In this document: piece after piece, positions 3,351 to 11,680 of the stretch
How the letters are laid out: every line of letters starts with the position of its first letter
Numbering within the stretch: the stretch's first letter is position 1
Source: a virus
Taxonomy: Duplodnaviria; Heunggongvirae; Uroviricota; Caudoviricetes
Direction: 5' to 3' (one strand)
Length of the DNA stretch: 11,680 bases
Virus record (IMG/VR): IMGVR_UViG_2740892236_000004
Location: 1-11,680 of that record
Made by a program: the position numbers and the translations under genes
Notes under the pieces: model-generated
What the model was told of the DNA's origin: nothing
The model's database searches: none
What the model saw: only the letters and a program-made list of their open reading frames with translations

Positions 3351-3644
3351 ATGAGCAAAGTACGCGTTATTTTTGAATTTAATCATGTTTCGCATGACGA
3401 AAAGTTGGCAGGCAATGACTGTGTTGAAGTGCATGAAAAGATTGGAGTGGATGTGAAAACAGAACGTGATACGGATAACAGGCCGACGTCACTCTGTGAC
3501 GTTTATGCAAGTATTCTCCAGTATCACAGTCCTGCAATTATTCAGTTTCTCTCAGCGGAATTTCAGGCATCTGCACAGTCTTTTGGAGCGGATGCCATCA
3601 TTAAACGCCACCGCGTGCATAAAGCATCAGGCACACTGCAATAA
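3351..3644 (+). CDS. Hypothetical small protein, paralog 2 of a tandem pair (N-terminus MSKVRVIFEF...)
   Basis: ATG 3351 with GGGG 7-8 nt upstream, 4 nt after the preceding TAA. The ORF track's longer 3324 start is in the same frame but overlaps the previous gene. Shared blocks with the upstream ORF: MSKV-R-IFE, D-NGP/D-NRP, AEF-A--AS-F. Confidence 0.55.
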   Translation: MSKVRVIFEFNHVSHDEKLAGNDCVEVHEKIGVDVKTERDTDNRPTSLCDVYASILQYHSPAIIQFLSAEFQASAQSFGADAIIKRHRVHKASGTLQ

Positions 3645-3655
3645 GGAAAAACAAA

Positions 3656-4186
3656 ATGGCTAAACGCGTTACAAAATTAAAGGCCGCAGCCGAGGCGGCA
3701 CCGCAGACCCGGGAAGAAGTCAGCCGTGATATCCGCACCCTGGGAGATATTCAGCGAGAGGCGCTGCGCCTGGAAACGGCGATGAATGACGAAGTGGCAG
3801 AAATCACCGCCCGTTATACGCCGCAGATTGAAAATCTTAAAAAGCAAATCAAAGTGCTTTTTAAAGGGATTCAGGACTGGTGCAAAACCAACCGTGATGA
3901 GCTGACGAACGGCGGCAAAACCAAAACAGCCAATCTGACCACCGGAACGGTGTCATGGCGGCTGGGAACGCCATCATGCAGCGTCAGCCGTGATGTGGAA
4001 GGTGTGATTGAAATGCTGCGCCGTATGGGGCTTGAGCGTTTCATCCGCACGAAAGAGGAAGTGAACAAGGAAGCCGTCCTGGCGGAGCCGGATGCTGTGA
4101 AAGGCATTGCCGGTATCAAGGTGAATAAAGGCGCTGAAAGTTTTTATGTCGAGCCTTTTGAACAGGACGCCGGACTGAATAAATAA
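3656..4186 (+). CDS. gam: Gam-like host-nuclease inhibitor (Mu Gam family, DNA-end-binding)
   Basis: 176 aa (Mu Gam is about 174 aa). Blocks such as LRLETAMNDEVAEITARY, ANRDELTNGGKTKTANLTTGTVSWR, GLERFIRTKEEVNKEAVLAEPDAVKGIAGI and FYVEPFEQ match my recollection of Mu Gam closely. AAGGA lies 8 nt upstream of ATG 3656. Confidence 0.88.
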   Translation: MAKRVTKLKAAAEAAPQTREEVSRDIRTLGDIQREALRLETAMNDEVAEITARYTPQIENLKKQIKVLFKGIQDWCKTNRDELTNGGKTKTANLTTGTVSWRLGTPSCSVSRDVEGVIEMLRRMGLERFIRTKEEVNKEAVLAEPDAVKGIAGIKVNKGAESFYVEPFEQDAGLNK

Positions 4187-6623: not shown

Positions 6624-6932
6624 ATGAGTATTGAATTAAGATCGTCTTATGAATATCGCAAAATCCTTATCGCCGGAGGGATGAAACCGGAAGATGCTGA
6701 AAAATTCGTTTCTTTTATGGATAAAGAATGTGACAAGCGGGATATGCCAGAAATTATTATGGATGACATGATTCTGGATTCAGCCGTAGCGTTAAGTCCG
6801 TTATGGATTGTGCATACCCTTGCGGAAATAGCTAAAAGAAGTGACAAGCAGGCGGCTGTCGCCGCCCTGCGATTACTGGCTGAATTAAGTTGTTCAGTCA
6901 ATCCCAATACGTTCTTTGACGAACCTGGTTAA
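6624..6932 (+). CDS. Hypothetical protein (102 aa). Its 3' end overlaps the 3' end of the reverse-strand gene by about 39 nt.
   Basis: ATG 6624 with AGGTGA 4-5 nt upstream. AT-rich. Stop TAA 6930-6932. Confidence 0.55.
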   Translation: MSIELRSSYEYRKILIAGGMKPEDAEKFVSFMDKECDKRDMPEIIMDDMILDSAVALSPLWIVHTLAEIAKRSDKQAAVAALRLLAELSCSVNPNTFFDEPG

Positions 6933-7611
6933 CATTGATTTGGTAACTTCTTTAATTAGATCAAATGGTGCGTCTGTAAACTCCTTTTTGATTCTTTCAA
7001 GGATTGGTTTTTTTCTCAGGGCGTTAGCTAAATCANNNNNNNNNNTAGTCAATCCCAATACGTTCTTTGACGAACCTGGTTAACATTGATTTGGTAACTT
7101 CTTTGATTAGATCAAATGGCGCGTCTGTAAACTCCTTTTTGATTCTTTCAAGGATTGGTTTTTTTCTCAGGGCGTTAGCTAAATCATGCCCCTGCTGGGT
7201 AAGCATAATGGGCGTGTTTCTGAAACCAACGCCCAGAGAATGGAAAAAGAAACCAATATATTTGGGTGTTTCTGACTGCATATCACCATTAACAATTGAG
7301 CCATTATCAGCGAGAAGCATAAGATGAAAAACTTTTTTATCCTNNNNNNNNNNAGTAAGCATAATGGGCGTGTTTCTGAAACCAACGCCCAGAGAATGAA
7401 AAAAGAAACCAATATATTTTGGTGTTTCTGACCGCATATCACCATTAACAATTGAGCCATTATCAGCGAGAAGCATAAGATGAAAAACTTTTTTATCCTT
7501 TTCCTCTCCTTCTGCCTCAGCCATGCCCAGATCCTGTAGTGTAAGGAAAGGTGTTTCAGCATCCTGAAAAGTTGTGAGAATACTTAATACTTCATCGTAA
7601 TCTATTTTCAT
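6894..7611 (-). CDS. Hypothetical protein on the reverse strand (about 136 aa once the duplicated scaffold overlaps are collapsed). The only reverse-strand gene in the window; candidate accessory (moron) gene.
   Basis: Reverse-strand ATG (complement of 7609-7611) with AAAGG 7-8 nt upstream. Translation MKIDYDEVLSILTTFQDAETPFLTLQDLGMAEAEGEEKDKKVFHLMLLADNGSIVNGDMQSETPKYIGFFFHSLGVGFRNTPIMLTQQGHDLANALRKKPILERIKKEFTDAPFDLIKEVTKSMLTRFVKERIGID, stop TGA as complement of 6894-6896. Two N10 joins (7036-7045, 7344-7353) with duplicated flanks inflate the apparent length. Short hand counts put GC near 40% here versus about 56% in B. Confidence 0.6.
7036..7045. other. Scaffold join (10 N). Flanks 6896-7035 and 7047-7186 are near-identical overlaps.
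   Basis: Run of exactly 10 n. gtcaatcccaatacgttctttgacgaacctggttaacattgatttggtaacttctt... occurs on both sides with 2 substitutions seen. Confidence 0.97.
7344..7353. other. Scaffold join (10 N). Flanks 7199-7343 and 7355-7499 are near-identical overlaps.
   Basis: Run of exactly 10 n. gtaagcataatgggcgtgtttctgaaaccaacgcccagagaatg... occurs on both sides with a few substitutions. Confidence 0.97.
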
Positions 7612-7675
7612 ATCGATACCTTTAGTTTTATCCGGGCGGCGTTGCCATGCCGCCTGTTGTTACGGAGACACGATA

Positions 7676-8188
7676 ATGAATCGCGCTTCCCTGATTACCT
7701 TAATACATGTCGCAAAACGCGATCTACAGCTTGACCATGAGACCTACACATCCGTACTACTGGCAGCCACCGGCAAACCCAGTTGCCGGGATATGTCACC
7801 GGATGAGTTATCCCGCGTGCTGGATGTTTTCAAAAAACGCGGTTTTAAAGTGCGTCAGAAGCCGGTTAACCGGGCCTTAAAACCGGGTACGGTGACCGCC
7901 AAAATTCGCGCCATCTGGAAGGTGATGCACCGGCAGGGCTTTATCTCTGATGGCGGGGAAACAGCCCTTAACCGCTGGGTGAAATCGCAGACGGCCGCTC
8001 AGAACGGCGGCGAAGGTGTGGCTAACTGGCAGTGGCTGGAACAACACCCCGCGCTGGCCTCTGATGTGCTGGAGCGTCTCAAACGCTGGCACCGCCGCAA
8101 GATGCTGGATGTGCTGGGGATGTCAGCGCGTACAGTGATGAGTTATGAGCGCGTTTGCAGGCTGTATGAAGAATCCTCCCCCTTTTAA
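7676..8188 (+). CDS. gemA: GemA-like phage regulatory protein (Mu gene 16 family)
   Basis: 170 aa with GGAGA 7 nt upstream of ATG 7676. N-terminus MNRASLITLIHVAKRDLQLDHETYTSVLLAATGKPSCRDMSPDELSRVLDVFKKRGF fits my recollection of the GemA family pattern (SLIaqIHiAK..LgLDDdTYr..L...TGk.ScrDM...L..VLD.FKr.GF). Position just upstream of the Mor/C-type gene matches Mu. Confidence 0.7.
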   Translation: MNRASLITLIHVAKRDLQLDHETYTSVLLAATGKPSCRDMSPDELSRVLDVFKKRGFKVRQKPVNRALKPGTVTAKIRAIWKVMHRQGFISDGGETALNRWVKSQTAAQNGGEGVANWQWLEQHPALASDVLERLKRWHRRKMLDVLGMSARTVMSYERVCRLYEESSPF

Positions 8189-8192
8189 CCCC

Positions 8193-8224
8193 AAATCCCG
8201 CCACAGCGCGGGATTTTTATTTTA
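8193..8224 (+). terminator. Rho-independent terminator immediately after gemA
   Basis: Perfect 9-bp stem aaatcccgc (8193-8201) / gcgggattt (8207-8215), 5-nt loop cacag, then a T-rich tract ttttatttta. Starts 5 nt after the gemA stop. Confidence 0.8.
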
Positions 8225-8258
8225 AACTTGCCCTGTGTAATGATGACCGGAGGCGGGT

Positions 8259-8681
8259 ATGGCTGAAACACAGATGAGCATGTTTGGTGACAGCGAACAG
8301 CTGCACGCGCTGATTGACCGTCTGGATGATATTCCTGATGATGAGCTGAAAAAGAACTGGCCCGGCACGCTGCGGGACCTGGTTGATGTGATCAGTGCTG
8401 AACTGCACCGTCAGGGGATTGAACCTGCTCAGGCGGGAATGCTTGCCCGTAAGGTTGCAGCCGCACAGGCCGGGTACATGGGCGGGCGTGGTTATTATCT
8501 CCCGGTCGGTGAATCCCTTTTCACCGAACTGCGCAATAATGAAATTTTTTCCCGCTGGAGCCAGGGCGAAAAAATTGAAACCCTGCGCCGCCACTACCAG
8601 ATGTCAGAGACGCAGATTTACTCCGTTATCCGTAACCAGCGCCGCCTGCATCAGGAACGCACGCAGCCCCGGCTTTTCTGA
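8259..8681 (+). CDS. Mor/C-family transcriptional activator (Mu middle/late gene activator family). Which of the two Mu roles it plays is not resolvable from sequence.
   Basis: 140 aa with GGAGG 5 nt upstream of ATG 8259. The C-terminal HTH-like segment ETLRRHYQMSETQIYSVIRNQRRLHQER parallels the Mor/C C-terminal DNA-binding region. The acidic N-terminus and overall size fit. It lies between the terminator and the lysis genes. Confidence 0.72.
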   Translation: MAETQMSMFGDSEQLHALIDRLDDIPDDELKKNWPGTLRDLVDVISAELHRQGIEPAQAGMLARKVAAAQAGYMGGRGYYLPVGESLFTELRNNEIFSRWSQGEKIETLRRHYQMSETQIYSVIRNQRRLHQERTQPRLF

Positions 8682-8752
8682 TATTCCGCAAATCCTGCCC
8701 ACTTTTTCCCACGGTTACGCTGACTCAGAGAACACCATGAGACAGCGTAACA

Positions 8753-9253
8753 ATGCCAAAACTCCCCGCACCCCTGCGTAAAAAGCTGATTGCCCTTGTT
8801 CTGGCCGGAGCCGGGACGTTCACCATTGCCACGCACTACACCGGCTACTGGGAAGGGAAAGAAAACACCACGTACATTGATCCCACCGGCACCCCCACCA
8901 TCTGTTACGGCCATACCGGCCCGGATGTGAAACCGGGGATGACAAAAACTGATGAAGAATGTCTGGAGCTGCTGGAAAAGGACATGAAATGGGCCTTTGC
9001 GGCTATCGATCGTCATGTTCAGGTGCCGCTTACCCGTGGTCAGACGGTGGCGCTGGCCTCCTGGATTTTCTGGGCCGGTGAAACGAACTTTCGCAACTCC
9101 ACGCTCCTGCGCCTTATCAATGCCGGGCAGATGCCCGGGTCCTGTAAGCAGTATATCCGCTGGATTTATTCAAAGGGGGTAAAACTCCCCGGTCTTGAGG
9201 CCCGCCGTTCGGCGGATGAATGGTTGTGTCGCTACGATTTGCCGAAAGTCTGA
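8753..9253 (+). CDS. lys: Endolysin, T4-lysozyme-like (GH24) muramidase with N-terminal signal-anchor-release (SAR) domain
   Basis: 166 aa. Catalytic E-x8-D-x5-T arrangement inside YWEGKENTTYIDPTGTPTICYGHT. The N-terminus MPKLPAPLRKK is followed by a weakly hydrophobic Gly/Ala-rich segment LIALVLAGAGTFTIATHY, typical of SAR endolysins. Confidence 0.88.
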   Translation: MPKLPAPLRKKLIALVLAGAGTFTIATHYTGYWEGKENTTYIDPTGTPTICYGHTGPDVKPGMTKTDEECLELLEKDMKWAFAAIDRHVQVPLTRGQTVALASWIFWAGETNFRNSTLLRLINAGQMPGSCKQYIRWIYSKGVKLPGLEARRSADEWLCRYDLPKV

Positions 9254-9365
9254 ACCGCTTCTGGCGACCACTCATGATTGCGCTGTTGTGTGTCGTTGTG
9301 GTGCTCCGGGGTGTGCTGTGGCTGCGGTGAATAATCCCTTACCGGCCCTGATTGCCGGAGGGTGT

Positions 9366-9716
9366 ATGGCGGCGCTGGGGGTGATGAGCGTGCTGGCTGC
9401 CGTGGTATGGGGAATGCACCAGAAGACACAGCGTCTTGAAGACAATAATCATGTGCTTGTGCGTGAACGGGACGAAGCCCGTCTGGTGCTGGCAAACCAG
9501 CAACGTACCCTGCAACTCATTTCACAAATCAGTAAGGCGGCCACGAATGAAAAACAGCAGAACATGCAGCACAGCGAGGAACAGCAGAGCATTGTCCGCC
9601 GGTCGCTGGCAACGGTGCCTGCGGCCTCTGTTCCTGTGCCTGATGATGTGGCTGACCGGGTGCGGCGGGCCGTCTGTGAAATACGTGCCGGTGAAGCCGG
9701 TGCCGATCCCCGCTGA
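9366..9716 (+). CDS. Putative i-spanin (Rz-like): N-terminal transmembrane helix plus periplasmic coiled-coil region
   Basis: ATG 9366 with GGAGGG 5 nt upstream. TMD MAALGVMSVLAAVVWGM, followed by a charged helical region. In-frame GTG 9327 is an alternative start; the upstream extension to 9195 has no RBS and overlaps lys. Confidence 0.62.
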   Translation: MAALGVMSVLAAVVWGMHQKTQRLEDNNHVLVRERDEARLVLANQQRTLQLISQISKAATNEKQQNMQHSEEQQSIVRRSLATVPAASVPVPDDVADRVRRAVCEIRAGEAGADPR

Positions 9717-9918
9717 ATGGCTGGCTGACTGTCTGGTTCCTCCTGTGCCGCAGCCGTTCACGTTTGGCGCATCGGTCACTTACAACCTGCAACTGCTGGC
9801 GGTGATTAAGAACTGCAACGTGGACAAGGCCAGCATCCGCCGTCTGGAGGTACAGCGACAGCATGAATTTACTGATATGGCCGGAACGACTGCTGTTCCG
9901 GCAGGAAAGACGAAGTAA
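9547..9918 (+). CDS. Putative o-spanin (Rz1-like outer-membrane lipoprotein), in the +1 frame, starting inside the i-spanin gene and extending beyond it (overlapped architecture)
   Basis: Lipobox LTGC with Cys codon at 9661-9663, preceded by the hydrophobic stretch LFLCLMMWL. The mature part is proline-rich (PVKPVPIP...PPVPQP). The start codon is uncertain: ATG 9547 gives an unusually long leader, a TTG at 9592 is possible, and ATG 9643 would be too short for a signal peptide. Confidence 0.55.
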   Translation: MKNSRTCSTARNSRALSAGRWQRCLRPLFLCLMMWLTGCGGPSVKYVPVKPVPIPAEWLADCLVPPVPQPFTFGASVTYNLQLLAVIKNCNVDKASIRRLEVQRQHEFTDMAGTTAVPAGKTK

Positions 9919-9928
9919 GGAAAAAGGT

Positions 9929-10156
9929 ATGGATGATTCAGATTGTGCTCAGGCAGTCGTGGAGCGGGCAACAGAACGCGCCCTTTGTGACCGGCTGACA
10001 CGTAAGTGCCGGGTGGAGGAGACTCCGGGCAGGCGTGTATGCGCAGACTGCGGGGGTGACATTCCGGCCGCCCGTCTGGTTGCCGTGCCGGATGCCATCC
10101 GTTGTGTGAACTGCCAGAGCATCATGGAGGCCGGTCATGTGGGTCAGCATCGTTAA
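9929..10156 (+). CDS. TraR/DksA-family C4-type zinc-finger protein
   Basis: About 75 aa. AAGGAAAAAGG lies upstream of ATG 9929. Four-Cys motif CADCGGDIPAARLVAVPDAIRCVNCQ with CxxC-x17-CxxC spacing, typical of phage TraR-like proteins. Confidence 0.75.
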   Translation: MDDSDCAQAVVERATERALCDRLTRKCRVEETPGRRVCADCGGDIPAARLVAVPDAIRCVNCQSIMEAGHVGQHR

Positions 10157-10448
10157 AGATTATGTCGTGCCGATCCTGTCGGCAACAGCCACGGCCGGGG
10201 GGATCTTTATGGCGCTGATGCGCAAAACCTTTGTCCCCCGCGAGGCCTTTGAAAAACTCTCCGACCGGGTTGAGCGGGTGGAGAGCCGGATTTCCGGCCT
10301 GCCCACGCAGCAGGAGGTGAACAGACTCAATATCGAAATCACCACCCTGCGCGGTGAGCTTAAGGCCACCAATGCCACCCTGAAATCCGTCTCCCACCAG
10401 AACGAACTGCTGCTGGAGCAGGCTGTAAGGAAAAAACACAATGAGTGA
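10137..10448 (+). CDS. Small membrane protein (single N-terminal TMD plus coiled coil); candidate lysis-associated protein
   Basis: 103 aa with GGAGG 6 nt upstream of ATG 10137; overlaps the TraR-like gene's 3' end. Hydrophobic segment VVPILSATATAGGIFMALM, then a charged heptad-like region. From memory, Mu-like phages have a DUF2730-type protein at this position. Confidence 0.58.
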   Translation: MWVSIVKDYVVPILSATATAGGIFMALMRKTFVPREAFEKLSDRVERVESRISGLPTQQEVNRLNIEITTLRGELKATNATLKSVSHQNELLLEQAVRKKHNE

Positions 10449-10731
10449 TTTCATTACTGAAGATCAGCGTCTTGTCATTCTGCGGTCGCTGGCGGATTAC
10501 AACGGCGAACTGGGCGAATCCGTGCTTCAGGACTGCCTGGATGATTACGGCCACCGCGTGTCCCGCGACACCGTTCACACCCACATTGCCTGGCTTGCTG
10601 AGCAGGGACTGGTGCGTAAGCGCACGCTTGTTAACGGTTATTTCATCGCTGAACTGACCGGCCGGGGTCAGGATGTGGCGGAAGGCCGCGCCACCGTTCC
10701 GGGTGTGAAGAAACCACGCGCAAGGGGGTAA
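10441..10731 (+). CDS. Hypothetical protein (96 aa), possibly winged-helix-like, directly upstream of the small terminase gene
   Basis: ATG 10441 overlaps the upstream stop (ATGAGTGA). The stop TAA 10729-10731 lies 2 nt before the next ATG. The fold assignment is a guess from helix-turn-strand patterning. Confidence 0.55.
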   Translation: MSDFITEDQRLVILRSLADYNGELGESVLQDCLDDYGHRVSRDTVHTHIAWLAEQGLVRKRTLVNGYFIAELTGRGQDVAEGRATVPGVKKPRARG

Positions 10732-10733
10732 CG

Positions 10734-11315
10734 ATGGATAAGCCGACGCGTGGCCGTGTACGCAAGGTGGATTTGCTCCCCGACAGCATCCGTAAGCCGC
10801 TGCTGGAAATGCTGCGTGAAAAACGCCTGACGCAGGTCCAGATCCGCGAGGAAATCAACCGTCTGATCCGTGAGGCAGGCCTGCCGGAAGAGCAGCAGCT
10901 TTCACCGGCGGCCATCAGCCGGGAAGCCTCCCGTAATGAGCTGATTGCCCGTAATCTGCGTGATTTACGCGAGCAGACAAAAGCCATGATGGCCGAACTG
11001 GGGGATAAGCCGACCGGTGAAACCACGGCACTGATTCTGGAGATGTCCCGTGCCCTGATGTACCGCCGTCTGCGTGCCGCCACCGAATCCCTGAACAGCG
11101 ACAGCGATGTGGATATGCGCCTCATCAAGGACATCCTCCTGTCGGCACAGCGTGCAGAAAGTGCCGCCGAGCGCAGTATTAAGCGTGAAAAAGAAATCCG
11201 GGCCGCATTTGCTGAAGAGATGGCGAACGCCGTCACCGACGAGTTGCGCGGCGTGGATGGCATGAGCGAGCAGATAGAATTCCGTATCAGGCAGATGCTG
11301 CTTGGTAAGGCGTAG
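10734..11315 (+). CDS. Putative terminase small subunit / DNA-packaging DNA-binding protein (Mu gp27-like)
   Basis: 193 aa with AGGGGG 5 nt upstream of ATG 10734. The N-terminal block RGRVRKVDLLPDSIRKPLLEMLREKRLTQVQIREEINRLIREAGLP matches the conserved N-terminal HTH region I recall for Mu gp27-family proteins. Position is upstream of the presumed large terminase. Confidence 0.62.
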   Translation: MDKPTRGRVRKVDLLPDSIRKPLLEMLREKRLTQVQIREEINRLIREAGLPEEQQLSPAAISREASRNELIARNLRDLREQTKAMMAELGDKPTGETTALILEMSRALMYRRLRAATESLNSDSDVDMRLIKDILLSAQRAESAAERSIKREKEIRAAFAEEMANAVTDELRGVDGMSEQIEFRIRQMLLGKA

Positions 11316-11325
11316 GAGGTGAATC

Positions 11326-11574
11326 GTGGTAACAGATAACCGCTCACTGATGAGTAGTGCTCATCAGAAGGCATTCAGTCTTGCAACACAGTTACCTCCT
11401 GAAACCATAAAAGCGTGTCGTGAGTTGACTGAACTCAGCATTGCCGGGGAAATATCCCTGGAACAACTGCATTCGCTGCTGGCAGAGGCTGTCACTGATG
11501 AGTTGAGTGGCGTGGACGTGATGACTGAAGAGCTTGAGTTCCGAATCAAAAGCATTCTGACAGGTAAAGCCTGA
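11326..11574 (+). CDS. Small ORF (82 aa) whose C-terminal ~30 aa are a diverged paralog of the small-terminase C-terminal tail
   Basis: GTG 11326 with AGGAGG 6 nt upstream. The C-terminus AEAVTDELSGVDVMTEELEFRIKSILTGKA aligns with the small-terminase tail ANAVTDELRGVDGMSEQIEFRIRQMLLGKA. The stop TGA 11572-11574 overlaps the next ATG. Confidence 0.5.
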   Translation: MVTDNRSLMSSAHQKAFSLATQLPPETIKACRELTELSIAGEISLEQLHSLLAEAVTDELSGVDVMTEELEFRIKSILTGKA

Positions 11575-11680
11575 TGAACAAAGCCAAAGAAACGTCTCCT
11601 TCACTGATACAAATGACGCCTCCCCGCAAAATTGATCTGTCCGGTGAAAAAGCCCTGCTGGGCGTGGATGTGCCGGACAG
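11574..11680 (+). CDS. 5' end of the next gene, probably the terminase large subunit by position; runs off the window
   Basis: ATG 11574-11576 overlaps the upstream TGA. Open frame to the window end (MNKAKETSPSLIQMTPPRKIDLSGEKALLGVDVPD...). Identity inferred only from gene order. Confidence 0.35.
   Translation, partial: MNKAKETSPSLIQMTPPRKIDLSGEKALLGVDVPD

Follow-up and report, generated by a model that had tools for sequence, protein, structure and literature searches.

How a phage whose endolysin is held at the membrane brings about lysis when no holin gene lies beside it is the question raised by this locus, which was analysed as a window of 11,680 nucleotides spanning the junction between early and late genes in a Mu-like prophage. 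The cassette within it groups the lysis genes of a Mu-like E. coli prophage, namely a tethered endolysin, two spanins and a gp25-type 'releasin', with a holin absent. Our main reading is that this region is the lysis module heading the late operon of a Mu-like (transposable) E. coli prophage and that it most likely works as in Mu, a reading to which we assign a probability of about 0.78. With its function judged from homology alone, the cassette would be a further instance of a holin-less lysis system already described in 2022; what appears to be new is a candidate gene for a conserved, unannotated membrane peptide (9220-9330) inside an otherwise ordinary cassette.

Prophage context and gene order

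The window shares 98.9% identity with a prophage found in E. coli M1/M3 and encodes MuB, Gam, GemA and C, while a transposase was found in the M1 relative. The gene order is that of phage Mu (GenBank AF083977), namely C activator, endolysin, i-spanin, o-spanin, TraR/DksA zinc finger, DUF2730, gp26 and gp27, and all genes from C through gp27 are both syntenic with and homologous to those of Mu, which supports a Mu-type reading, even though protein identities are only 25-63% (C 40%, endolysin 40%, i-spanin about 25%, o-spanin 41%, DUF2730 33%, gp26 63%, gp27 57%). The corresponding operon in Mu likewise runs lys, i-spanin, o-spanin, small zinc-ribbon protein, DUF2730, gp26, gp27. Unlike in Mu, there are no Mor, gp18, gp19 or gp20 genes between gemA and C, and equivalents of Mu gp19 and gp20 were found nowhere in the window. 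The cassette is present in 231 of 5,426 complete E. coli genomes (~4%), O157:H7 strains among them. Relatives for comparison were drawn from IMG/VR (36 loci), RefSeq E. coli and Logan/ENA contigs, and a scan of genome contigs with the DUF2730 protein returned one locus, in Citrobacter braakii (87%).

All genes described below are on the + strand. The late-gene activator (8259..8681), a Mu C orthologue of the Mor/C family (PF08765, 7e-31), is the window's sole member of that family; it matches Mu C over its full length (40% identity, E 2e-36) and Mor weakly, in a C-terminal match. Between this gene and the endolysin lies an intergenic region (8682..8752, + strand) that corresponds in position to the late promoter annotated in Mu, with short conserved blocks common to Mu and the Citrobacter relative, and we presume it to be a C-dependent late promoter equivalent to Mu Plys. 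A sigma-70 scan found no consensus site in 8682..8752, and a terminator scan found no terminator-like site on the + strand from 8216 to 11680; such scans are uninformative about a late promoter of the activator-dependent kind expected here. An Rfam scan of the window matched no family.

A SAR-type endolysin

The gene at 8753..9253 encodes a GH24 muramidase of 166 aa with an N-terminal SAR-type signal anchor, the orthologue of Mu gp22 and of the phage 21 R type. PF00959 (Phage_lysozyme) recognises it at 1e-37, and the GH24 triad E-X8-D-X5-T is present as E34-X8-D43-X5-T49, with E34 invariant among 60 homologues. Its N-terminus reads MPKLPAPLRKK-LIALVLAGAGTFTIATHYTGYW-E34, such that K3, R9, K10 and K11 come before the SAR segment L12-W33 (8786..8851) and the catalytic E34 comes directly after it. 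The 22 residues of this segment include no acidic or basic side chain except one His, are 50% Gly/Ala/Thr and have a mean Kyte-Doolittle (KD) value of 1.09; here as elsewhere, TMD and SAR calls are based on Kyte-Doolittle hydropathy and homology. Across the endolysin subfamily an uncharged stretch of 15-24 residues, ~50% G/A/S/T, adjoins the catalytic Glu. Like Mu gp22, the protein would be a SAR endolysin of the GH24 family, and it has several basic residues near its N-terminus; like phage 21 R and DLP12 RrrD (PDB 3HDE, 3HDF, 4ZPU) it has a P-x-L-R-K motif before the SAR segment, which can be aligned with Mu gp22 from residue 1 and with phage 21 R (PDB 3HDE) from residue 5.

Phage 21 R is also the closest solved structure (E 4e-26). 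An AlphaFold2 model of the endolysin (pLDDT 93.5) superposes on full-length R21 (3HDE) with a TM score of 0.89 and an rmsd of 1.7 over 166 columns, SAR segment included, compared with a TM score of 0.57 for the truncated R21 form 3HDF. The prediction packs residues 6-34 onto the enzyme as two helices, in the manner of the released, active R21 of 3HDE.

The overlapped spanins

The i-spanin gene (9318..9716, start codon inferred) encodes a Mu gp23 orthologue of 132 aa with an N-terminal TMD (PALIAGGCMAALGVMSVLAAVVWGM; KD19 2.22) and a periplasmic domain that is helical. Its PHROG match is phrog_214 ('Rz-like spanin', 3e-30), and its alignment to Mu gp23 scores 73 against a shuffle mean of 28.6. 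Its start is most likely the GTG at 9318, which stands at the position of the ATG used in a distant clade and has GGGG 6-7 nt upstream. Longer forms of the i-spanin, from ATG 9216 or TTG 9195, were rejected: in relatives the frame upstream shows non-conservative changes, its pN/pS being 1.4-2.2.

The o-spanin gene (9547..9918) is read in the +1 frame relative to the i-spanin gene, inside which it begins, and ends 202 nt beyond the i-spanin stop (9716). Its product is a lipoprotein of 123 aa, the Mu gp23.1 orthologue (41% identity) and of the P2 LysC type (PF23793 LysC, 2e-16; phrog_3001, 4e-40), with a lipobox L-T-G-C at Cys39 and a Pro-rich mature part; both the ATG at 9547 and the lipobox are conserved in all clades. 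The genes for gp23 and gp23.1 of Mu are overlapped too, the o-spanin again running 202 nt past the i-spanin stop, and in P2 LysB/LysC (PF23793) too the o-spanin has its start within the i-spanin gene, is read in the +1 frame and continues past the end of that gene. P2, however, combines the holin Y with the cytoplasmic endolysin K, whereas the context here is Mu-like. On sequence grounds the pair is a two-component spanin of overlapped architecture. The original prediction, which had proposed an endolysin with a SAR-like N-terminal segment followed by an i-spanin and a +1-frame o-spanin lipoprotein that outruns it, is borne out for all three genes. In the RefSeq annotation of the M1 relative both spanins are truncated, the i-spanin being started inside its TMD and the o-spanin after its lipobox Cys.

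Search for a holin

Hydropathy analysis and a six-frame scan detected no ORF with at least two hydrophobic segments in a credible coding frame in the window, nor does any PHROG lysis-category match lie outside the cassette in the window. A two-segment frame on the minus strand (7179-7562) was rejected; its doubling is an assembly artefact, and the de-duplicated 75-aa frame is the shadow of a phrog_585 gene. The window covers ~11.7 kb of the prophage, the sequence of which includes five scaffold joins, and a holin elsewhere in the prophage is excluded only by way of the complete M1 relative, in which 0 of 55 annotated genes have more than one hydrophobic segment. A holin or pinholin in the usual sense, that is, a small membrane protein of the late transcript, as a rule with 2-4 TMDs, whose gene accompanies that of the endolysin, thus appears to be missing from the window, as it is from Mu. 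In lambdoid phages the R21-type endolysin is paired with a two-TMD pinholin, S21 in phage 21; no such gene is found here and there is a DUF2730 gene instead.

The original prediction had also described the surroundings of the endolysin as free of multi-TMD holin-like ORFs, and on this point it stands, the window scan having found none in a credible frame. What it overlooked is a hydrophobic ORF of 36 codons with a single TMD (9220-9330) next to the endolysin. This small ORF matches no holin family and is the sole unexplained membrane candidate.

The DUF2730 protein

Chamblee et al. (2022, mBio, PMC9239132) showed that Mu gp22 is a SAR endolysin and that Mu has no holin, and established experimentally that gp25, a membrane-tethered DUF2730 protein termed 'releasin', is required for gp22 release. 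The original prediction had cited Mu as lacking a classical holin and employing a releasin, which agrees with that study, and on the strength of position had nominated the ORF 10137-10448, with one TMD, as the counterpart. The nomination holds. The ORF (10137..10448) encodes a DUF2730 protein of 103 aa, the Mu gp25 releasin orthologue, which matches PF10805 with 80.4 bits (cut-off 24.9) over residues 6-97 of 103. The comparison with Mu gp25 that had been proposed reveals a full-length homologue in the syntenic place, with 33% identity over 94 residues (E 2e-18), corresponding to the 'type I' criterion of Chamblee et al. In a library of 1.84 billion proteins a near-identical copy of Mu gp25 (P0038) matched the DUF2730 protein at E 3e-8, and an identical protein is named 'DUF2730 family protein [Escherichia coli]' in RefSeq; agreement with the family consensus is found at KTF, LP, LRGE and LLLE.

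A single hydrophobic segment, Y9-M28 (KD19 1.80), provides the one TMD that had been predicted, and it is followed by an R29-K30 junction and R35, much as in gp25 an N-terminal TMD is followed by an Arg-Lys junction. The AlphaFold2 model (pLDDT 92.6) consists of three helices (2-31, 35-54 and 58-102), and a fold search of the PDB with it gave no significant match (best E-value 6.8). On the positive-inside rule alone the topology would be type I (N-out, C-in), the cytoplasmic domain being helical. That domain has 11 Asp+Glu versus 14 Lys+Arg (net +3), compared with 12 and 11 in Mu gp25 (net -1), and would not be called "predominantly anionic", a phrase which describes gp25 and is not a strict membership criterion. 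The net charge of +3 is a poor fit with an acidic-microenvironment model, and in this respect counts against a Mu-type reading.

The o-spanin and DUF2730 genes are separated by a gene that the original description did not include (9929..10156, its start being that in the RefSeq annotation of the M1 relative), which encodes a TraR/DksA-type C4 zinc-finger protein of 75 aa in the Mu gp24 position (PF01258, 2e-11; phrog_54, 8e-17); such a clear TraR/DksA zinc finger in this position is a difference from Mu. The DUF2730 gene is the fourth annotated gene downstream of the endolysin, or the fifth with the small ORF, and no terminator-like site on the + strand lies in between.

Proposed course of lysis

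Taking over the order of lysis events from Mu by homology, we propose that the C-family activator would switch on the late transcript, after which Sec would export the GH24 endolysin, and its weakly hydrophobic SAR segment would tether the inactive enzyme to the inner membrane, the cytoplasmic basic cluster R9-K10-K11 plus K3 probably helping to keep it there. The DUF2730 protein, in its type I orientation (N-out, C-in), would then help the SAR segment to leave the bilayer, such that the endolysin would depend on it for release; the segment would refold onto the catalytic domain, the enzyme would degrade peptidoglycan, and the complex of i-spanin and o-spanin would fuse the inner and outer membranes. 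A holin would have no part in these events. Experimental characterisation of Mu-type holin-less lysis, by SAR endolysin and releasin, is confined to Mu, and the same architecture is kept at 25-63% protein identity in a clade carried by ~4% of complete E. coli genomes.

A small ORF between endolysin and i-spanin

The cassette would have an extra membrane component if the small ORF encodes a single-pass membrane peptide involved in lysis control, a possibility that we entertain tentatively and at well below even odds. Found in the six-frame hydropathy scan, this unannotated ORF (9220..9330) has 36 codons (34 from codon 3; MVVSLRFAESLNRFWRPLMIALLCVVVVLRGVLWLR) and overlaps the 3' end of the endolysin gene by 34 nt and the start of the i-spanin gene by 13 nt, overlaps with both neighbours being expected for coupled translation. 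Among 39 relatives in which the junction is covered, drawn from E. coli/Shigella, Citrobacter and Serratia as well as from unassigned contigs, 37 have the frame open at a constant 36 codons; the remaining two (L012 and L027) were missed only because the motif pattern did not catch them or because an error-laden contig has a 1-nt insertion. Most substitutions are synonymous or hydrophobic-for-hydrophobic (one double-change Leu codon included), and pN/pS is 0.41-0.60 versus 1.4-2.2 in the overlapping i-spanin frame, although this contrast is only modest because it is drawn from 20 non-overlapping codons and related sequences. The motif W-R-P and a C-terminal L-R-G-[VA]-L-W-L are conserved, and the hydrophobic segment, with a mean KD of 2.48, is the most hydrophobic in the cassette.

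Against a role in lysis, the conserved 3' part of the small ORF coincides with the ribosome-binding site and start of the i-spanin, and DNA conservation could therefore be explained without translation. Its own Shine-Dalgarno match is weak, it matches no PHROG family and is absent from the RefSeq annotation of relatives, and no equivalent was found in Mu, where gp23 starts at that spot. A tblastn search of 50,697 phage records returned only two, both Stx-phage records with an inserted Mu-like phage. The peptide of 34-36 residues, with an Arg within its hydrophobic stretch, falls below the size of established holins; to our knowledge none is as small as this. The ORF may instead be a remnant of the 5' end of an ancestral i-spanin gene, though protein similarity is marginal, being reached by 3 of 500 shuffles for the N-terminus of Mu gp23 and by 9 of 500 for the i-spanin. 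At the DNA level, similarity to the i-spanin TMD was reached by 102 of 500 shuffles, leaving a tandem duplication as a weak idea only. Fusion of the endolysin to the small ORF by -1 frameshifting was rejected, a reading of the overlap having shown no X XXY YYZ slippery site, and the apparent fusion in L027 is due to one surplus A in a homopolymer, on a contig whose frame is disturbed elsewhere too.

If functional, the peptide could depolarise the membrane or act in the manner of a minimal holin, could cooperate with the SAR endolysin or the releasin or oppose either of them, or could regulate the translationally coupled i-spanin. Jointly with the releasin it could time SAR-endolysin release, or it could gate the i-spanin. 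It would then be a component added to a lysis system, one that phage Mu itself lacks. The stronger proposition, that the ORF is translated into a single-pass inner-membrane peptide forming a functional part of lysis control throughout a widespread 'holin-less' Mu-like clade, we consider rather unlikely.

Alternatives for release of the endolysin

R21-type enzymes can be released spontaneously, and the SAR endolysin here might do the same on accumulation, leaving the DUF2730 protein with some other late function, for example one linked to packaging together with gp26, gp27 and the terminase; we consider this improbable. The SAR segment has 3 Gly, whereas that of Mu gp22 has six Gly in seven positions, and its composition is nearer to R21, a difference that counts against a Mu-type reading, as does the placing of the basic residues, K3 and R9-K10-K11 here versus K6-K7-K9 in Mu, of which only K6 and K7 mattered (PMC9239132). 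The cytoplasmic charge of the DUF2730 protein is likewise unlike that of Mu gp25, and its gene lies directly upstream of gp26-gp27-terminase and overlaps gp26. In addition, many Mu-like phages combine a DUF2730 gene with a cytoplasmic, non-SAR endolysin (PMC9239132), and the family may therefore have a broader or different role, again a point against Mu-type release.

Against spontaneous release stands the experimental work on Mu, in which deletion of gene 25 caused timely lysis to be lost and gp25 was found to stimulate release of unrelated SAR endolysins (PMC9239132). The protein encoded here falls in the gp25-similar subgroup and is paired with a Mu-type SAR muramidase, which is the pairing of the releasin model (PMC9239132), and the SAR segment here is flanked by a run of three basic residues; the addition of N-terminal basic residues had in earlier work locked SAR domains in the membrane (discussed in PMC9239132).

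It is very improbable that the endolysin begins with a Sec signal peptide that is cleaved off or with a stable anchor, or that a conventional holin lies outside the window, for while A18-G19-A20 and T24-I25-A26 are small residues that on direct reading could pass for signal-peptidase sites, and while ~27 kb of the prophage is outside the window and relatives carry variable accessory modules (in the M1 prophage a single-TMD DUF1378 gene near the right end), the segment ends at the catalytic Glu and throughout the subfamily belongs to the conserved enzyme, is modelled at pLDDT above 90 and packed as in full-length active R21, and aligns with two experimentally proven SAR domains (Mu gp22 and R21), and the complete M1 relative is without a gene of at least two hydrophobic segments, just as Mu was shown to be holin-less (PMC9239132).

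Under Mu-type release, the reading we prefer, the cassette would offer natural variation for models of releasin action in its arrangement of basic residues, its R21-like SAR segment and its net-positive releasin cytoplasmic domain, the last of which argues against a purely acidic-microenvironment model. There is also a point for annotation, in that RefSeq both shortens the two spanins in the M1 relative and omits the small ORF.

Mu-like setting and probable lysis mechanism

The window (11.68 kb) corresponds to the left third of a Mu-like transposable prophage. MuB (1371-2303), a Kil-like gene, Gam (3656-4186), a gp11-like gene and GemA (7676-8188) lie on its plus strand, and after GemA come a Mor/C-family activator orthologous to C (8259-8681), the lysis block, gp26 and gp27. 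Among known records, Mu-like E. coli prophages come closest, with those of strains M1 and M3 98.9% identical over 8200-11680; two Stx phage records contain an inserted Mu-like phage with 88% identity to the window, and DNA-level similarity to phage Mu itself is confined to gp26-gp27. The lysis block is present in 231 of 5,426 complete E. coli genomes. The complete M1 prophage (L003, NZ_CP010180.1) measures ~38.5 kb and is inserted in the lateral-flagellar gene flgL (L003 1530-40374).

Gene order from C to gp27 is the same in the window and in Mu, and every product is homologous. In the Mu record (AF083977) C is followed by a C-dependent late promoter, gp22 ('SAR endolysin'), gp23 ('i-spanin'), an overlapping 'o-spanin', gp24, gp25 ('releasin', DUF2730), gp26 and gp27, the last annotated as the small terminase subunit; the gp24 position is occupied in the window by a TraR/DksA zinc-finger gene. 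Identity to Mu is 40% for C, 40% for the endolysin, about 25% for the i-spanin, 41% for the o-spanin, 63% for gp26 and 57% for gp27.

In Mu, gp22 acts as a SAR endolysin and gp23 with gp23.1 as spanins, and holin behaviour was seen in none of the membrane proteins; deletion of gene 25 blocked timely lysis, gp22 and gp25 together lysed cells, K6 and K7 conferred the gp25 dependence of gp22, and unrelated SAR endolysins were also helped by gp25 (Chamblee et al. 2022, mBio, PMC9239132). According to the same study, DUF2730 proteins of Mu-like phages lie at most five genes from the endolysin and have an N-out/C-in TMD with an RR or RK junction, with SAR-endolysin pairing limited to the gp25-similar DUF2730 subgroup and one other. 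The statement in the original prediction that Mu lacks a classical holin and uses a releasin to free its SAR endolysin matches this account. The gp25 releasin model is also cited in a 2024 preprint, and no later mechanistic work on the releasin was found in the literature searched.

The cassette that had been predicted is real, and its interpretation as a Mu-type cassette with a releasin candidate is supported. It most likely works as in Mu: by homology, C would activate the late transcript, the endolysin would be exported and kept inactive in the inner membrane, and the DUF2730 protein would next promote its release; the freed SAR segment would then refold and the wall be degraded, with the spanins acting last to fuse both membranes. 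The lysis system is of the kind described for Mu in 2022, with a DUF2730 family already named in RefSeq. Several differences from Mu could be informative. The basic residues R9-K10-K11 of the window endolysin flank the SAR segment directly, and this segment, with three Gly, resembles that of phage 21 R; the releasin TMD is rich in small residues (SATATAGG), and the releasin cytoplasmic domain has a net charge of +3 rather than the -1 of Mu, which fits poorly with a model based on an acidic microenvironment alone.

Endolysin and spanins

The endolysin (8753-9253, plus strand) is a GH24 lysozyme (PF00959 at 1e-37) with catalytic triad E34, D43 and T49, and the SAR-like N-terminal segment originally attributed to it is borne out. 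Behind four basic residues (K3, R9, K10 and K11), the 22 residues L12-W33 have no acidic or basic side chain except one His, are half Gly/Ala/Thr, have a mean hydropathy of 1.09 and directly abut the catalytic Glu, a design kept across 50-odd endolysin homologues. Homology and predicted structure were used to judge whether this segment is a SAR domain or a signal peptide. Among solved structures, full-length phage 21 R (3HDE) and DLP12 RrrD (4ZPU) are the best relatives, and the alignment with them begins at residue 5, within the SAR region. An AlphaFold2 model built with 60 homologues (pLDDT 93.5, pTM 0.89; helices 6-17 and 22-34) matches full-length R21 with TM 0.89 and rmsd 1.7 Å over all 166 columns, but truncated R21 (3HDF) with TM just 0.57. 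The prediction therefore places the N-terminal segment within the mature fold, like a released SAR domain, which argues against a cleaved leader, short of proof.

Both spanins are as proposed. The i-spanin gene (plus strand) stops at 9716, and pN/pS data on the codons upstream argue for a start at GTG 9318 (ATG in a distant clade) and not further upstream. The o-spanin (9547-9918), in the +1 frame, has a conserved ATG and a lipobox, LTGC with Cys39, and ends 202 nt beyond the i-spanin stop. RefSeq places the M1 i-spanin start inside the TMD and the o-spanin (lysC) start after the lipobox Cys (L003 12467-13019), so that the annotated o-spanin lacks a signal peptide; in other genomes the i-spanin is labelled 'endopeptidase' or 'hypothetical protein', with a start further upstream.

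Releasin homologue and holin search

The positional releasin candidate, ORF 10137-10448 (plus strand), has one hydrophobic segment and is a homologue of Mu gp25 (33% identity, E 2e-18), matching DUF2730 over nearly the whole protein at 80 bits (cut-off 25). It shares 100% identity with a RefSeq E. coli protein found on at least 1,000 contigs, and keeps the positions conserved in an alignment of 59 family representatives: a basic junction followed by T-F, an L-P turn, L-R-G-E and L-L-L-E. Its model has three helices (pLDDT 92.6), for which no significant structural neighbour was found in the PDB.

No credible ORF with more than one hydrophobic segment came out of a six-frame hydropathy scan of the window, consistent with the original observation that none lies beside the endolysin, and the window has no equivalents of Mu gp19 and gp20. 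One minus-strand frame with two such segments (7179-7562) was rejected as a shadow frame of the phrog_585 gene, doubled by an assembly artefact. For a holin elsewhere, the search covered, beyond the window, the annotated products of the M1 relative, none of whose 55 has more than one hydrophobic segment; the prophage itself was covered for its left third. In M1 a single such segment occurs only in an early hypothetical protein, the DUF2730 protein, a head-completion protein and, towards the right end, a DUF1378 protein. This one-TMD DUF1378 product belongs to a DUF6645-DUF1378-DUF826 module (especially L003 35646-38352), which resembles one adjoining the lysis genes of Stx phages.

A small ORF between endolysin and i-spanin

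The sole cassette element that could add something new is a 36-codon hydrophobic-peptide ORF (9220-9330, plus strand; MVVSLRFAESLNRFWRPLMIALLCVVVVLRGVLWLR), flagged by the hydropathy scan and not listed in the original prediction. It overlaps both neighbours, starting 34 nt ahead of the endolysin stop and ending 13 nt past the inferred i-spanin start. By strict motif search it is open at the same length in 34 of 41 sequences; it is also present in L012, which differs at motif positions, and in three more distant loci (L041-L043), including a Serratia-type relative. Among relatives holding the junction it is intact in 37 of 39, the other two being L012, missed by the motif pattern alone, and L027, by a 1-nt insertion. 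Six loci are without it: Mu, L038 (a 40%-identity relative) and L027, L037, L039 and L040, which are truncated or error-laden contigs. In L027 (IMG/VR; 3405-3995) the endolysin frame is joined to the small ORF's C-terminal part by one additional A within an A-run, probably a sequencing error, because another frame disturbance occurs nearby.

Conserved features are W-R-P and a C-terminal L-R-G-[VA]-L-W-L. Over the 20 codons overlapping neither neighbour, pN/pS in the small-ORF frame is 0.41 for all distinct sequences and 0.60 for nine representatives, against 2.18 and 1.38 in the i-spanin frame; most changes are synonymous or exchange Val, Leu and Ala for one another, and one Leu codon goes from CTC to TTA. 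The case that the ORF may be translated is a moderate one, because it draws on a short stretch from related sequences, with a 3' end that is also the i-spanin ribosome-binding site. No RefSeq annotation or PHROG match was found for it. Mu has no equivalent, gp23 starting at that position, and descent of the ORF from an ancestral i-spanin 5' end is a marginal possibility.

Other features of the window

Five exact 10-N runs (391-400, 749-758, 1243-1252, 7036-7045 and 7344-7353) are each flanked by direct repeats of 120-219 nt that are 97-99% identical. They look like scaffold joins of unmerged overlapping contig ends, perhaps from two related Mu-like prophages or strains, and they yield false duplications of MuA/MuB-region ORFs and of the minus-strand gene at 7033-7611.

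Between gp27 and the large terminase start lies an 82-aa ORF (11326-11574, plus strand; phrog_30922, 1e-55) that is absent from Mu. It partially duplicates the tail of the small terminase as a paralogue: over its final 30 residues it shares 57% identity with the Mu gp27 C-terminus and closely resembles that of window gp27.

The C orthologue is the one Mor/C-family gene in 7676-8681, and no equivalents of Mor, gp18, gp19 or gp20 were found between gemA and C in the window; a strong terminator-like hairpin (8193-8216) lies there, directly followed by C. The minus-strand gene (phrog_585, weak DUF2513; about 136 aa once de-duplicated) sits in a low-GC island (6900-7650, 36-41% versus about 55%) and looks like a moron. 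In the M1 relative the minus-strand gene is a different one and lies elsewhere, between gemA and C.
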